Of a DNA stretch of 64,000 nucleotides, positions 29,625 through 43,494 are shown piece after piece; within the stretch, counting starts at the first letter, position 1, and every line of letters starts with the position of its first letter. Origin of the DNA: Amphiscolops sp. MND2022 (lineage: Eukaryota); contig OZ076411.1 in assembly GCA_964187785.1 (NCBI GenBank), positions 18,848,001 through 18,912,000 of the forward strand. The letters are read 5' to 3'. The position numbers and the translations under genes are program-made. The notes below the pieces were generated by a model. The model worked only from the letters and a program-made list of their open reading frames with translations. It was not told where the DNA came from and did no database searches.

Positions 29625-29956
29625 ACTTATATCTCAACTTTTAAGATGAGTTTTTATGGCTGGCGGCTGGATGCAGGAATGGAGAGCAGCCAAGTCTTCG
29701 GAACATGGATCACAATCCTCAGATAAGTTCTCTCTTTTCTTATTTGAAAACACAACCATGCAATTCTCTAGTTATTGTCAGCACTGATGTTTTTGTATTA
29801 ATAAGTGTTATTATAGTTATTTGTTTAAAGATGCTGATCAAATAGTTAAAAGGTTAAAGTTCTGTCATAGGTAAATTAGTTTTAAGGTCAAATATTTAAG
29901 AGTTCTTTCAATCAGTTCTTTTGTCCTCAACAACGGAATGTTTCAGCTATGTTACA
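29625..29956 (-). repeat. 3' LTR
   Basis: Same 332-bp sequence as 43163-43494 (331/332 by eye). Confidence 0.95.
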
Positions 29957-29968
29957 CTTCATCTCATC
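29957..29968 (-). promoter_or_regulatory. Polypurine tract GATGAGATGAAG
   Basis: Purine-rich 12-mer abutting the 3' LTR on the element strand. Confidence 0.6.
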
Positions 29969-30293
29969 GAAAAACTTCCGGCGTTCGAAAAAGAGCCATC
30001 ATACAGTCTGAGGAGTAGTGTAGTGATGATTAGAAGCTGAAATTGCCAAGTTGAGTAGTCTACTTCCAATAATTCCATTGAAAGAGCCCAAAGAGAAGAG
30101 TTTTGGAGAGCAGCACAAGTCCCAGTTTCATGTTGTGATAAAGTTGTATATTTCATCCAGTCCAGTTGAATATTGTAGAGCCAAAGATTACTGCATTTAT
30201 AGTTTACATATTACTGCAGAAGAAAATTTATGAAAGGATTTGTTTTGATCAATCTCAATGATGAATGAATGATTGAACCGAAGGTTCGTGAAG

Positions 30294-32699
30294 TCAAGCA
30301 ATGGTGTCGGCTTGGTCTGCTTCAAAGTCTCCGGTATCGGGAACCTTTTGGTTAATTGTAACTTGACAGTTACTCGGATGTCTTTTGGTTGATGATTGAA
30401 GTTTTTGAATGGGTTGGCATTGTTTGAATGCAGTCGTCTCGTATTCAAACATTGAACTGGCCATTCTGGGGTCTAGTGGACTTTGCATGAGCACTTGATC
30501 GCAATTAGCAGATGTAGATGGTTCGTTTAGATTTCTTTTCGATTGTGAACGTGAAAGATGATATATTCGTCCAAATTTTTTGTGAAATTTATCCTCAGCA
30601 TGAGAATCAGTTGTTTCCAATTTCATCATGGGTTTAGCTCGCACTCTTTTTTTATTTTTATCAAGTAGGGATGGAAACAATTTCGATGCCAGATTGTAGC
30701 GATGATAAATGTACATAAAGATTAAGTGCAAAGCTGTCGATACAATGAACACAGTTAATGTCAGCATGAATGAAATTCGGAACGGAACATATTGATTAAA
30801 TTCTTTCGTTAAGGCTGGTTTCAAGAGTTTCATTTCTGATGCATATGGTCTGGCAATGTCGATCATATGTTTGACTTCACGATTCTTTGGTCCTTTTGCT
30901 AACTGTAGCTTTACCTCCTTCAATAACTTCACTCCTGCTTCAGCTTTCGATGTGTAGAACGGTAATTCGTCCAAAGGGGGGACTTCCATAACCAATGAAG
31001 CGATAGGATTAGGCAGAGAAACTTGCAATTTTATTGGCGGAATGTGAGCGCAACTTGATAGATCAGATCGGATTTTGATGTCAGTCATGATTTGCATTCC
31101 ACATGCTAAAGTGATGAGACATATGCGGCATCCGCGAAAAGAAGAGCCCTGAACAGATGAAGATGAAACTTCACGAAGGGTAACTGCGTGAGCGGATTGA
31201 ATTAACCAAATGCCATAGCCTAACTTTGTTGCTTGTTCTATGGCAGGCAGTTGTACAATGGTAGTATCACATACTGCAAGAGCCTCCGATGCTGTACTTG
31301 AATACAAGGTGGCTAAACAAGATGAGTGTCCCATCTCTGTTGGAACAGACTCTGAACAGATTCGGTAACGAGATGAGCCGAGACAATGCTCAAACTGTTC
31401 TGCAGAGAGGACAGATGACTCCATGTGATCCTCCGACAAAGCTAAATATGGAGCTTCGATGTTCCATGTAAGAGCCGACTGGGGATCGTCTGGATACGGC
31501 ATCGGAATTAATTTTGCTTCGTAGACGGTAAAAACGGTTTGCTTAGATGCTAGCGGGACGTTGAGGGTCATCAAAAGACCTTCGTTAACCGTAATAGCAT
31601 CTGCTAAGAGCTTGGAATCGAAGTAAGAGAGCAGATCTGACATTGGGATAGCTAAAGACAGCCTATCCTCAGCCGTCGCCTGCTTCATTGCAACACTTCG
31701 TAGAATAGCCAATAACGATTCCGTTGGTACCAAAGACATAGGTAAATGACCTCTAAGTATAACCGGAATCGAATTTAAGATGTTCATGCGGAATGCAAAC
31801 AAGGCCGCGCGATAGCTCTTAACGCTTGCATGTATCATTGCTAGTAGCGAAGATAGGGTATCGAAATTGAAGTTTAGTTGTTGATTCGAAAAAAGCATTT
31901 GGTTGCAGTCGCGGAGTACATGAAAATTATGCTCAAAAACATCAAACTGTTGTTGAATAAGTACCCAGTTTTTGTTCTGCGTATCAACAAGTTCCCTTTG
32001 GATGTCGTGAAGGGCCGCCAATTCATTTTCAACCATAAAAAATTTTTTGTCCGTAGATGTTGTAAATTCAGTTACATACTGGGTTAAAACGTCCTGGAAG
32101 TCTGATAGTTTGCGAATGTTCTCGGCATTTGCCTTCGCAGCGTCTTGACAGGAACCAAAAATGCCTTGTAGTCCACAAGAGTCGGAACTACAGAGAGCCA
32201 CTCCTCCTCCAAAAAGGCCGACTGCAGCAAGAGCCGCTAGTCCCACTTGGGATCCACGTCGGTGGCGAGTATTCCGCTGCTGTTGAGGAGGGGAGAGAAA
32301 CATTGCTGTTTCATTACGTAGGAGGGCAACATCGAGTTCCGCAGTGTGGATTTCAGTTTCTATTTGTTGTAACATCCAGGTGACATTGAACGGCGTTGAA
32401 TTTGTTGAAAAGTGACTTGAAAAATCCAAGGGACAAAAAACAGATGGAAGTTCCCACATCGACGCGAATTTGGCCATTAAGGCCACAATATCTGGTTTAA
32501 GTGCGAAGTCATAAGTCGGAAAGGGGACTAAAAATTCAATTTTTATAAATTTCTCCGCGAGCAAGATTTTACCGCGTTCATGGAACAGAACGCCCTTTTC
32601 TTGGATTTCGTTCGGGTTATTGGAGGCTTCTAAATTTGAAAGCCACTCACTTCGAACTGAAGCAGGGGTGAATAAAACCAGTAGGAACAAAACCAACAT
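30294..32699 (-). CDS. env: Env-like class I fusion glycoprotein, 801 aa
   Basis: Signal peptide MLVLFLLVLFTPASVRS; furin site RHRR; Gly/Ala fusion peptide GSQVGLAALAAVGLFGGG; heptad region; Cys-rich region; TM FMLTLTVFIVSTALHLIFMYIY; cytoplasmic tail. Confidence 0.88.
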   Translation of the reverse strand: MLVLFLLVLFTPASVRSEWLSNLEASNNPNEIQEKGVLFHERGKILLAEKFIKIEFLVPFPTYDFALKPDIVALMAKFASMWELPSVFCPLDFSSHFSTNSTPFNVTWMLQQIETEIHTAELDVALLRNETAMFLSPPQQQRNTRHRRGSQVGLAALAAVGLFGGGVALCSSDSCGLQGIFGSCQDAAKANAENIRKLSDFQDVLTQYVTEFTTSTDKKFFMVENELAALHDIQRELVDTQNKNWVLIQQQFDVFEHNFHVLRDCNQMLFSNQQLNFNFDTLSSLLAMIHASVKSYRAALFAFRMNILNSIPVILRGHLPMSLVPTESLLAILRSVAMKQATAEDRLSLAIPMSDLLSYFDSKLLADAITVNEGLLMTLNVPLASKQTVFTVYEAKLIPMPYPDDPQSALTWNIEAPYLALSEDHMESSVLSAEQFEHCLGSSRYRICSESVPTEMGHSSCLATLYSSTASEALAVCDTTIVQLPAIEQATKLGYGIWLIQSAHAVTLREVSSSSVQGSSFRGCRICLITLACGMQIMTDIKIRSDLSSCAHIPPIKLQVSLPNPIASLVMEVPPLDELPFYTSKAEAGVKLLKEVKLQLAKGPKNREVKHMIDIARPYASEMKLLKPALTKEFNQYVPFRISFMLTLTVFIVSTALHLIFMYIYHRYNLASKLFPSLLDKNKKRVRAKPMMKLETTDSHAEDKFHKKFGRIYHLSRSQSKRNLNEPSTSANCDQVLMQSPLDPRMASSMFEYETTAFKQCQPIQKLQSSTKRHPSNCQVTINQKVPDTGDFEADQADTIA

Positions 32700-42508: not shown

Positions 42509-43150
42509 ACTAAGATTGTAGTGGAGAAAAAATTGAAAAATTGTCGATTAAAATTTGTAAAGTGCAGTCGAACACTGACGTGTAGTTTGAACTTCGAAAA
42601 CTGAACAACGAATATGAAACGTTCAATGCGAAACAAGAAAGGTTCGAGATCAAATTTATAGCGTATTTGCAACAATTACAATTTGCAGTGAAAAGATGAA
42701 ACGTGCAATTGTAAAGAAAAAGTTTGCAGAAAATCACAGTTCACTTTCAAAAAGAGTAACAGCTGTGAGACAGTTCAGTTGAAAATGAAAACAGTTGAAG
42801 CACTCATGAAATTCGAAAACTACACTATATCACTTTACTGCTTCTGAATTGAATCAGACTCACCGAGTGTATTCGTACTGACATTTTGAAGTCATCATGA
42901 AATTGAATACAGATATCGTAGCATCAAAGTTCGCCCAATTGGAGAAAGTCACCAAAAGTCATCGTTGATTGCTGTAGTTTCCAGTTTCTGCCGTGCCTTG
43001 TTTGTTTCAGTTATTACAGCCTCGTGGATCTGGTGTTGGTTGTGGATGATGTGGCTGGAACACCGCGGGTGGTTGGTCGGGGGTCTCGTGTGAGCTTTTC
43101 AACACAAAAAGGAGAGTTCTTCTCTGTATTGCATAGTGAGGATTGTTTTG

Positions 43151-43162
43151 CTCCTGTCACCA
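43151..43162 (-). promoter_or_regulatory. Primer binding site TGGTGACAGGAG (possibly tRNA-Leu)
   Basis: Directly follows the 5' LTR and starts with TGG. 11/12 match to the complement of the tRNA-Leu(CAG) 3' end as I recall it. Confidence 0.7.
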
Positions 43163-43494
43163 ACTTATATCTCTACTTTTAAGATGAGTTTTTATGGCTG
43201 GCGGCTGGATGCAGGAATGGAGAGCAGCCAAGTCTTCGGAACATGGATCACAATCCTCAGATAAGTTCTCTCTTTTCTTATTTGAAAACACAACCATGCA
43301 ATTCTCTAGTTATTGTCAGCACTGATGTTTTTGTATTAATAAGTGTTATTATAGTTATTTGTTTAAAGATGCTGATCAAATAGTTAAAAGGTTAAAGTTC
43401 TGTCATAGGTAAATTAGTTTTAAGGTCAAATATTTAAGAGTTCTTTCAATCAGTTCTTTTGTCCTCAACAACGGAATGTTTCAGCTATGTTACA
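43163..43494 (-). repeat. 5' LTR
   Basis: On -, begins TGTAAC and ends TATAAGT. One visible mismatch to the 3' LTR. Confidence 0.95.

Follow-up and report, generated by a model that had tools for sequence, protein, structure and literature searches.

The 64,000-nucleotide stretch of Amphiscolops sp. MND2022 DNA analyzed in this study (positions 18,848,001 to 18,912,000 of contig OZ076411.1, assembly GCA_964187785.1; referred to as the window) harbors, on the minus strand at 29625-43494, a Ty3/gypsy long terminal repeat (LTR) retroelement whose LTR pair is identical at 331 of 332 bases. Its pol-env interval of 3,004 nt contains two genes in antisense orientation, in agreement with a preliminary description of this DNA that had reported about 3 kb of oppositely oriented genes at this place. 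With a slight preference, we read the interval as an exchangeable antisense cargo slot for a membrane glycoprotein gene (gene A) and a gene encoding a predicted anti-silencing nuclear enzyme, the latter being either OTU-like (gene B) or JmjC-type. An anti-silencing role is proposed because two unrelated eraser-type families, both ending in basic tails, fill one and the same slot.

Exchange of cargo genes on near-identical backbones

The genome of 1.07 Gb was searched for members of the element family, yielding at least 57 matches to env (55 scored of 1,201 candidates) and at least 151 matches to gene B exon 2 (150 scored of 278 candidates). For comparative analyses, 30 copies were picked from the genome match lists and complemented by the window copy, resulting in a set of 31. 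Both LTRs were visible in 24 of these copies, showing identities in the range of 96.7–100% (at least 99.5% in 19 of them), and the family of the window element is recently expanding. Most copies share approximately 90% alignable identity in gag-pol and env; the 3-kb interval is approximately 70% identical or unalignable.

Comparison of individual elements revealed the exchange. Elements L019/20 and L023/24 differ at a proportion of synonymous sites (pS) of only 0.00–0.01 in reverse transcriptase (RT), integrase and env; for gene B, pS amounts to 0.83 (saturated), and gene A shows 32% identity. Moreover, L019/20 and L025/26 have gene B in common, with gene A being just 33% identical. Backbones that are nearly identical carry gene A and gene B in different combinations.

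Furthermore, the slot accommodates a second type of enzyme gene. Seven further env loci, namely those that did not appear in the exon-2 match lists, were inspected, and all seven, lacking gene B, carry a JmjC-type cargo at the same place and in the same orientation. The corresponding open reading frames (ORFs) are intronless and encode approximately 300–380 aa (one is split by a stop); gene A is retained in five of the seven elements. One of the seven ORFs passes the Pfam JmjC cut-off (30.3 vs. 24), and the other six are mutually homologous and keep the H-x-E...H motif. A structure model of one of these six (mean predicted local distance difference test score, pLDDT, 53) gave a best Foldseek E of 2.2e-5, with all listed rows belonging to the JmjC family, and comparison of a JmjC-type ORF model with JMJD6 using VIA resulted in Z 8.5 at a root-mean-square deviation (rmsd) of 4.5 over 179 aligned residues. 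The sister cargo combines the HxD/E...H motif with a JmjC fold and represents a predicted JmjC oxygenase. PDB sequence searches with the JmjC-type ORFs returned no match, and eight of eight further ORFs of this type stayed below the Pfam cut-off. A histone-directed function is weakened by the nearest JmjC folds, which include tRNA and protein hydroxylases (TYW5, JMJD6, JMJD5) and not histone demethylases alone.

Elements with different cargo can be closely related. OTU-cargo element L055/56 and JmjC-cargo element L083/84 are 89% identical in gag-pol and 85% in env, and a quick integrase tree places both in a single clade with an SH-aLRT of 97. On the quick integrase tree comprising 50 rows, the cargo label requires three changes, at least two of which are forced by well-supported branches.

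The JmjC type is represented by at least 120 matches in the genome (117 scored of 369 candidates). Of ten matches fetched, five occupy the antisense position that separates pol from env. Three others lie behind pol in env-less elements with short LTRs, and the remaining two belong to a distant element with env, in whose long terminal repeats they reside. Two of the three short-LTR elements were typed as BEL/Pao by Pfam. Short-LTR elements lacking env, with an antisense JmjC-type ORF behind pol, were observed at L110-L113 and L098-L099. L114-L117 represent a distant env element (RT approximately 29% identical) in which RT and integrase are separated by a macrodomain and each of the very long terminal repeats contains a JmjC-type ORF.

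A further ORF was noted within the slot. Gene C, an optional sense-strand ORF of approximately 95 aa between genes A and B with conserved W-I-E and P-K/R-x-x-G-L-R motifs, occurs in 12 of the 31 main copies and in three of the seven JmjC-cargo elements (L005, L017, L023, L025, L027, L032, L034, L036, L039, L049, L051, L056, L084-L087); it is absent from the window copy and gave only a weak DUF6619 match.

Gene B, a five-exon antisense gene predicted to encode an OTU-like protease

The cassette of the window copy comprises the following features:

32760-33091 (+): conserved non-coding stretch in the gap between env and gene A, candidate antisense promoter/leader
within 32760-33091 (+): candidate splice donor approximately 100 nt upstream of the gene A acceptor (acceptor at 33086-33087)
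33092-33485 (+): gene A, antisense to the element; frame lost before the membrane segment in the window copy
33934-34242 (+): gene B exon 1, two His of an HHCC-like finger, acceptor directly before the ATG; frame change in the window copy
34308-34571 (+): gene B exon 2, CxxC and the G-x-C-W predicted catalytic Cys motif; frame change at the Cys motif in the window copy
34646-34812 (+): gene B exon 3, 167 nt wherever placed
34911-35101 (+): gene B exon 4, HCEP with the predicted catalytic His
35178-35253 (+): gene B exon 5, 24-aa basic tail resembling a nuclear localization signal (NLS), found in 14 of 14 inspected copies

Motif-anchored mapping resolved gene B into five coding exons for a product of approximately 340 aa; the OTU-like protein of the preliminary description gained profile support (see below), though as a spliced gene and not as a single ORF. 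Donors are GT in 96 of 96 and acceptors AG in 72 of 72 cases, the sites having been placed by offsets from protein motifs, with one base forced by the motif at two of the seven site types. Exon lengths are fixed, introns measure 61–105 nt, and the junctions are identical in lineages whose RTs are just 46–60% identical. Among 45 pairs formed by ten copies, 11 have measurable dS (synonymous substitutions per synonymous site), giving dN/dS ratios (dN referring to nonsynonymous substitutions) of 0.05–0.16 in ten and 0.38 in one; in the other 34 pairs synonymous sites are saturated, and the proportion of nonsynonymous differences (pN) is 0.15–0.39. Genes A and B constitute a conserved antisense cassette, with gene B allele pairs evolving under strong purifying selection.

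In addition, ten distant gene-B matches were chosen to span weaker scores. All ten are located in retroelements, antisense behind pol domains, and env sequence follows downstream in nine (a remnant only in two) and is missing in one. Three of these distant elements retain genes A and B without an intact env, one of them having LTRs that are 99.7% identical. Elements of this kind were recorded at L063-L066 and L073-L074, the L063/64 type accounting for approximately ten matches with identical exon-2 scores. The macrodomain located at the Pol C-terminus of the window element is missing in several cassette-keeping lineages including the four deepest (RT 46–60% identical), and the cassette is therefore likely older than the macrodomain.

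Since the window copy and many others are broken, with exons 1–4 of gene B in phase and stop-free in just 13 of the 31 copies, the antisense block might be taken for a neutral captured host fragment. This explanation is extremely improbable in view of the purifying selection between gene B alleles, the splice sites conserved across deep lineages and the location of all ten distant loci inside retroelements. The latter loci and the number of exon-2 matches also contradict a one-off capture missing from other family members, which the preliminary description had considered.

Assignment of gene B to the OTU proteases relies on profile comparisons. OTU stretches were taken from the Pfam OTU matches of the same genome; the stretch from L119 was cut in the wrong frame and contributes noise only. 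Exons 2–4 compared with 15 such stretches reached a best hidden Markov model score of 22.5 bits, with 100 shuffles not exceeding 8.5 bits, and hhalign with 13 of them resulted in 95.8% (E 6.9e-9, 114 columns). An ORF without introns, placed antisense behind pol in BEL/Pao elements (three of three fetched), provided the stretches with the highest scores. It exceeds the Pfam OTU cut-off, and gene B aligns with it collinearly from the beginning up to and including the Cys motif (E 0.0019 and 7.5e-5). The BEL/Pao elements L138-L143, with an intronless antisense ORF for an HHCC-like region and an OTU domain behind pol, harbor the nearest recognizable relative of gene B. OTU domains were also seen within ORFs of 2,200–2,800 aa at L121, L127, L128 and L135, possibly representing Helitrons. 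As in OTU proteases, a G-x-C motif in gene B is followed by helices and then by strands ending in a His, the latter being present in 12 of the 13 in-phase copies.

Several results weigh against this assignment. The gene B exons had no Pfam or PDB sequence match, and the Pfam OTU search of the genome did not list the gene B loci. The structure model, obtained from intron read-through, is poor (pLDDT 41); no Foldseek match had an E below 0.58, even though OTU domains made up 24 of 42 listed rows, and the best VIA match, Otu2, reached just Z 4.5 (rmsd 3.1, 63 aligned). Moreover, in most copies the OTU Cys motif is preceded by a residue other than the usual Asp, and 2 of 13 in-phase or inspected exon-4 types do not possess the predicted catalytic His. 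Considering both sides, exons 2–4 of gene B encode an OTU-like protease with high probability. In protein databases, an Atlas search with a stop-free part of gene B gave no usable match; an exon-2 profile yielded 47 matches among 1.84 billion representatives, ten of which were looked up and are unnamed ENA proteins, and no spliced full-length gene B product was found among 20 of the 47.

Upstream of the OTU-like part, an H..H..CxxC motif is conserved across the intron-1 junction. This HHCC-like region aligns end-to-end with the BEL/Pao OTU ORF (12.7 bits; shuffles not above 4.8) and more weakly with integrase zinc regions (up to 8.5 bits). A direct hhalign comparison of the gene B N-terminal region with integrase zinc regions was not significant (0.4%), which speaks against the finger, and exon 1 alone did not match the element's own integrase finger. 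We read gene B as a putative fusion of an HHCC-like finger, an OTU-like protease and a basic tail.

Such a composition could also serve replication or integration of the element: the cargo enzymes might shield Gag or integrase from ubiquitin-driven turnover, join the intasome via the HHCC-like finger, or tune repair at the integration site. The resemblance of the N-terminal region to integrase zinc-binding regions fits this explanation, as do the Pol-fused TARG1-type macrodomain, which would travel with integrase, and Ginger1 transposases, in which H2C2, DDE and OTU parts are fused and for which a role in transposition or repair has been proposed (PMC2836005). It is nevertheless unlikely, because the slot can also be filled by a JmjC oxygenase, which is chemically unrelated and shows no HHCC match, and because related cargo is found in BEL/Pao elements, whose Gag and integrase are very different. 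These shared cargo types point to a broader version of the preferred anti-silencing reading, to which we give somewhat less than an even chance. Accordingly worded, Ty3/gypsy and BEL/Pao elements of the same genome may share a pool of antisense chromatin-eraser genes (HHCC-OTU deubiquitinase, JmjC demethylases) and exchange them at one fixed position, in the manner of resistance cassettes, with env lineages adding a fast-changing surface protein and an ADP-ribose hydrolase; this would be an invertebrate complex-retrovirus design with an interchangeable, partly intron-containing anti-silencing module.

Gene A, a small antisense membrane glycoprotein gene

Gene A is an antisense ORF of 100–138 aa with a signal-peptide-like start and an ectodomain of the pattern C-x4-WRGH...CCxNGT. 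Four ectodomain cysteines are invariant, and the predicted product further has an N-glycosylation site, a membrane segment with terminal cysteines and a basic juxtamembrane stretch, in line with the small glycoprotein anticipated in the preliminary description. In 23 of the 31 copies, the frame remains open across the hydrophobic segment. Gene A types are 24–57% identical, making it the most variable gene of the element; searches of Pfam and PDB sequences gave nothing significant, and no Pfam family is common to its members.

A length of 100–138 aa and a single membrane segment followed by a cysteine cluster and a basic stretch are features that might suit a small fusogen. Gene A, and not env, could then be the main spreading factor, similar to FAST or sORF2 proteins, or could act at the cell surface against competing elements; its retention in env-defective elements and in five of seven JmjC-cargo elements would agree with this. 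However, sORF2/FAST-like genes are described as sense-oriented, selected for N-myristoylation and having ectodomains of about 30 aa (PMC11952523), whereas gene A runs antisense and combines a signal-peptide-like start with a longer disulfide-type ectodomain that contains an N-glycosylation site. Together with the missing common Pfam family, these differences make the fusogen explanation very unlikely. Gene A was not classified as a FAST/sORF2 member, as it has neither an N-myristoylation motif nor sense orientation.

Relationships of Pol and Env

The window element shows LTRs, a primer binding site (PBS), a polypurine tract (PPT), a short target site duplication (TSD) and the domain order protease, RT, RNase H, integrase, and its RT is closest to that of Ty3, so that its earlier suggested placement in the Metaviridae holds. 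The best PDB match of the RT is Ty3 RT (E 6e-26), followed by foamy virus (4e-19) and other retroviruses (6e-8 or weaker). With Ty3 RT as the best match, membership in the Retroviridae was rejected; the 120 listed pol homologues carried no informative names from which a Metaviridae clade could be named. Between protease and RT, a dUTPase-like domain was weakly indicated (Pfam 21.9 bits vs. a cut-off of 22), and this region is conserved in 92 of the 120 listed homologues.

The last approximately 130 aa of Pol match TARG1/OARD1 structures (E 7.6e-24), corroborating the previously reported Pol-fused macrodomain, and are stop-free in 23 of the 31 copies. The TKK and G-L-D segments align; we take these to contain the catalytic Lys/Asp pair of TARG1.

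Env features a hydrophobic N-terminus, a furin-type site (RHRR) and, after it, a hydrophobic Gly-rich peptide, as well as a membrane segment and a long tail. Its ectodomain stretch is stop-free in 26 of the 31 copies, with pN far below pS. Pfam Baculo_F was matched by 5 of 46 aligned env homologues (best E 3.6e-7), the window Env itself having no Pfam match, and the Env profile matched paramyxovirus F0 and influenza HA2 weakly among PDB entries (E of 0.0095 or above). Env is likely F-type-like and may be related to class I F proteins.

OTU and macro domains of viruses are established antagonists of host immunity. The element might be an infectious agent resembling a complex retrovirus, in which macrodomain, OTU-like enzyme and surface protein counter cytoplasmic innate immune signaling during cell-to-cell spread. 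The constrained, stop-free env ectodomain would be in accordance with this, as would the variability of gene A, which is expected at a host interface. We regard this explanation as quite unlikely, given the NLS-like basic tails on OTU and JmjC cargo, the three distant elements that carry genes A and B but no intact env (including the one with 99.7% identical LTRs) and the lack of the macrodomain in several cassette-keeping lineages. The OTU/JmjC exchange and the basic tails favor chromatin, which the preliminary description had named as one possible target, over general immune signaling.

Proposed expression route and mechanism

Genes A and B each possess a pyrimidine-AG acceptor a few bases upstream of the ATG. 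A spliced leader has been reported for an acoel (PMC9911081), and the genome analyzed here contains 1,779 exact matches to the acoel spliced leader, among them tandem genes in which a GT donor follows the leader. On the basis of these matches and the tandem leader genes, the host is very likely an acoel using spliced-leader trans-splicing. The spliced-leader RNA genes are arranged in tandem with a period of 904 bp (L097); two dispersed leader copies are fused directly to mRNA-like sequence and are probably retrocopies (L061, L062). A pyrimidine-AG acceptor near the ATG, as in genes A and B, was also seen at a host gene of the window, namely an intronless gene at 44941-46737 (-), concentrative nucleoside transporter-like by eye, with a TTTTTTCAG acceptor directly before the ATG.

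Trans-splicing as the sole route was not accepted, since most copies contain a candidate cis donor approximately 100 nt upstream of the gene A acceptor. A GTRAG donor between genes A and B was absent from three of the six copies printed, and a shared poly(A) hexamer downstream of exon 5 was present in just 7 of 28 copies.

Replication would take the course typical of LTR elements, with expression of gag, of pol by a -1 frameshift, and of env. In the genomic RNA the cassette introns would remain unspliced and be copied into each new insertion, as suggested by the antisense orientation and the shared intron positions: the packaged sense RNA presumably offers no usable splice sites for them, which would explain intron retention in gene B. 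A separate antisense transcript would give rise to two mRNAs, each via the acceptor upstream of its ATG; the leader joined there could be a shared one spliced in cis or a spliced leader added in trans. Old cassette alleles may be moved onto near-identical backbones when templates are switched between RNAs packaged together; the swaps themselves were observed. Finally, the predicted enzyme, OTU-like or JmjC-type, would enter the nucleus and strip host silencing marks from element chromatin, with ubiquitinated histones or methylated histone H3 as putative targets.

To our knowledge, animal retrotransposons are rarely found to encode counter-silencing enzymes of their own. A single slot that alternates between two eraser-type families on near-identical backbones, with old alleles under purifying selection, provides a natural comparison of which host mark matters, and the five-exon antisense gene B shows a way for a retroelement to keep introns. 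LTR elements constitute approximately half of an acoel genome (PMC9911081); if the enzymes, which are directly testable, act on chromatin, they could help to explain this expansion.

Anatomy of the window copy and its surroundings

Apart from the cassette, the following features were assigned in the window copy:

29620-29624: left TSD, CTGAA
29625-29956 (-): 3' LTR, 332 bp, TG...AGT
29957-29970 (-): PPT with one pyrimidine interruption
30294-32699 (-): env, 801 aa, open frame in the ORF listing
35704-40698 (-): pol ORF, 1664 aa in the window copy
35725-36111 (-): TARG1/OARD1-type macrodomain, Pol C-terminus
approximately 37543-37815 (-): integrase core, within pol, followed by a low-complexity linker and the macrodomain
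approximately 37876-38049 (-): integrase zinc finger, within pol
approximately 38692-39090 (-): RNase H, within pol
approximately 39289-39780 (-): RT, within pol
approximately 40396-40641 (-): dUTPase-like region, within pol
40667-41246 (-): aspartic protease region with DTGA motif, in two frames in the window copy
41195-42463 (-): gag, 422 aa, CCHC knuckle (E 2.5e-5)
41198-41205 (-): A-rich slippery-type heptamer just upstream of the gag stop
43145-43162 (-): PBS, TGGTGACAGGAG..., directly downstream of the 5' LTR
43163-43494 (-): 5' LTR
43495-43499: right TSD, CTGAA

The LTR pair, the CTGAA duplication at both ends and the PBS after the 5' LTR, which we take to resemble tRNA-Leu, bear out what had been described before, as do the open 801-codon env frame and the order of gag and slippery site, the protease fragment lying beyond the A-rich heptamer in a frame different from that of gag. 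The PPT is recognizable as a purine tract before the 3' LTR, one purine being replaced by T in the window copy and unchanged in related copies. Correcting the preliminary description, the copy as assembled is broken outside env: the protease region carries two frame changes, gene A has one, and exons 1 and 2 of gene B contain further ones. These may be true mutations or homopolymer assembly errors. A third antisense ORF beside the pol end (35265-35726) is restricted to the subgroup of the window copy and was left out of the gene count.

Members of a dispersed repeat family lie to either side of the element (20250-22350, 28870-29260 and 43540-43720), and a related piece was found in the cassette of copy L013. 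Further features of the window, named by eye, include a Polinton/Maverick-looking ORF cluster at 1821-14773 (DNA polymerase B pieces, integrase, ATPase, capsid-like and protease-like ORFs), broken hAT-like transposase ORFs at 16545-18344, and a 780-aa ORF with tyrosine-recombinase-like motifs plus a related 224-aa ORF at 59288-63566 (-). Moreover, a 405-nt inverted repeat with internal duplications is located at 48970-49820, with three doubtful tRNA-like folds predicted by ARAGORN.

Comparison with known systems

The sources compared below are cited from their accessible parts. ‘Ancient errantiviruses’ with F-type env have been described in non-insect animals by Chary and Hayashi in eLife (PMC13524379), so that env in a non-insect gypsy element, as pointed out in the preliminary description, is not new and is already catalogued across metazoans. 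They share with the window family the Ty3/gypsy gag-pol-env organization, LTRs, PBS, furin site, fusion peptide, multi-copy occurrence and non-insect hosts. In contrast to the window family, no pol-env cassette is described for them in the accessible text; the terms macro, dUTPase, antisense, accessory and acoel do not occur there, nor six acoel names in the accessible supplements.

Conserved antisense ORFs behind pol are known from gypsy elements of plants (Retand, PMC11963269) and fungi (Boty/brtn, PMC8365987). These elements differ in lacking env, in their cargo (TRP28 or uncharacterized) and in that the accessible texts report no OTU/JmjC exchange. Bdelloid rotifer LTR elements (PMC5408684) resemble the window family in extra ORFs shared by unrelated retroelement types, a dUTPase between protease and RT, and an F-type env; however, their ORF3 encodes a GDSL esterase or a DEDDy exonuclease, and introns or JmjC are not mentioned in the accessible text.

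Ginger1 DNA transposons (PMC2836005), like gene B, unite an H2C2 finger and OTU in one protein and have GT-AG introns, but they possess a DDE core between H2C2 and OTU as well as terminal inverted repeats, whereas gene B leaves no room for a DDE core and resides in an LTR element. Gene B was therefore not assigned to Ginger1; by analogy, an origin from a Ginger-like gene may serve as a lead. Eraser-type enzymes within LTR elements are exemplified by an orchid gypsy element with an AlkB-type demethylase (PMC9289625) and by fish endogenous retroviruses with macro-domain ORFs, as reviewed in PMC4977317. Both differ in enzyme family and host, carry a single cargo and are described, as far as accessible, without an exchangeable antisense slot. 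The Drosophila MDG1 sORF2/FAST protein (PMC11952523) is, like the gene A product, a small single-pass membrane protein with a basic juxtamembrane region encoded by a gypsy element; it is sense-encoded and N-myristoylated, whereas gene A is antisense with a signal-peptide-like start and a cysteine-rich ectodomain.

No description of this cassette or of an OTU/JmjC slot was found in the literature searched, repeat databases and subscription journals lying outside the search. Separate precedents exist for env in gypsy elements, for antisense ORFs and for captured enzymes; what is new is their combination and the exchange of cargo.

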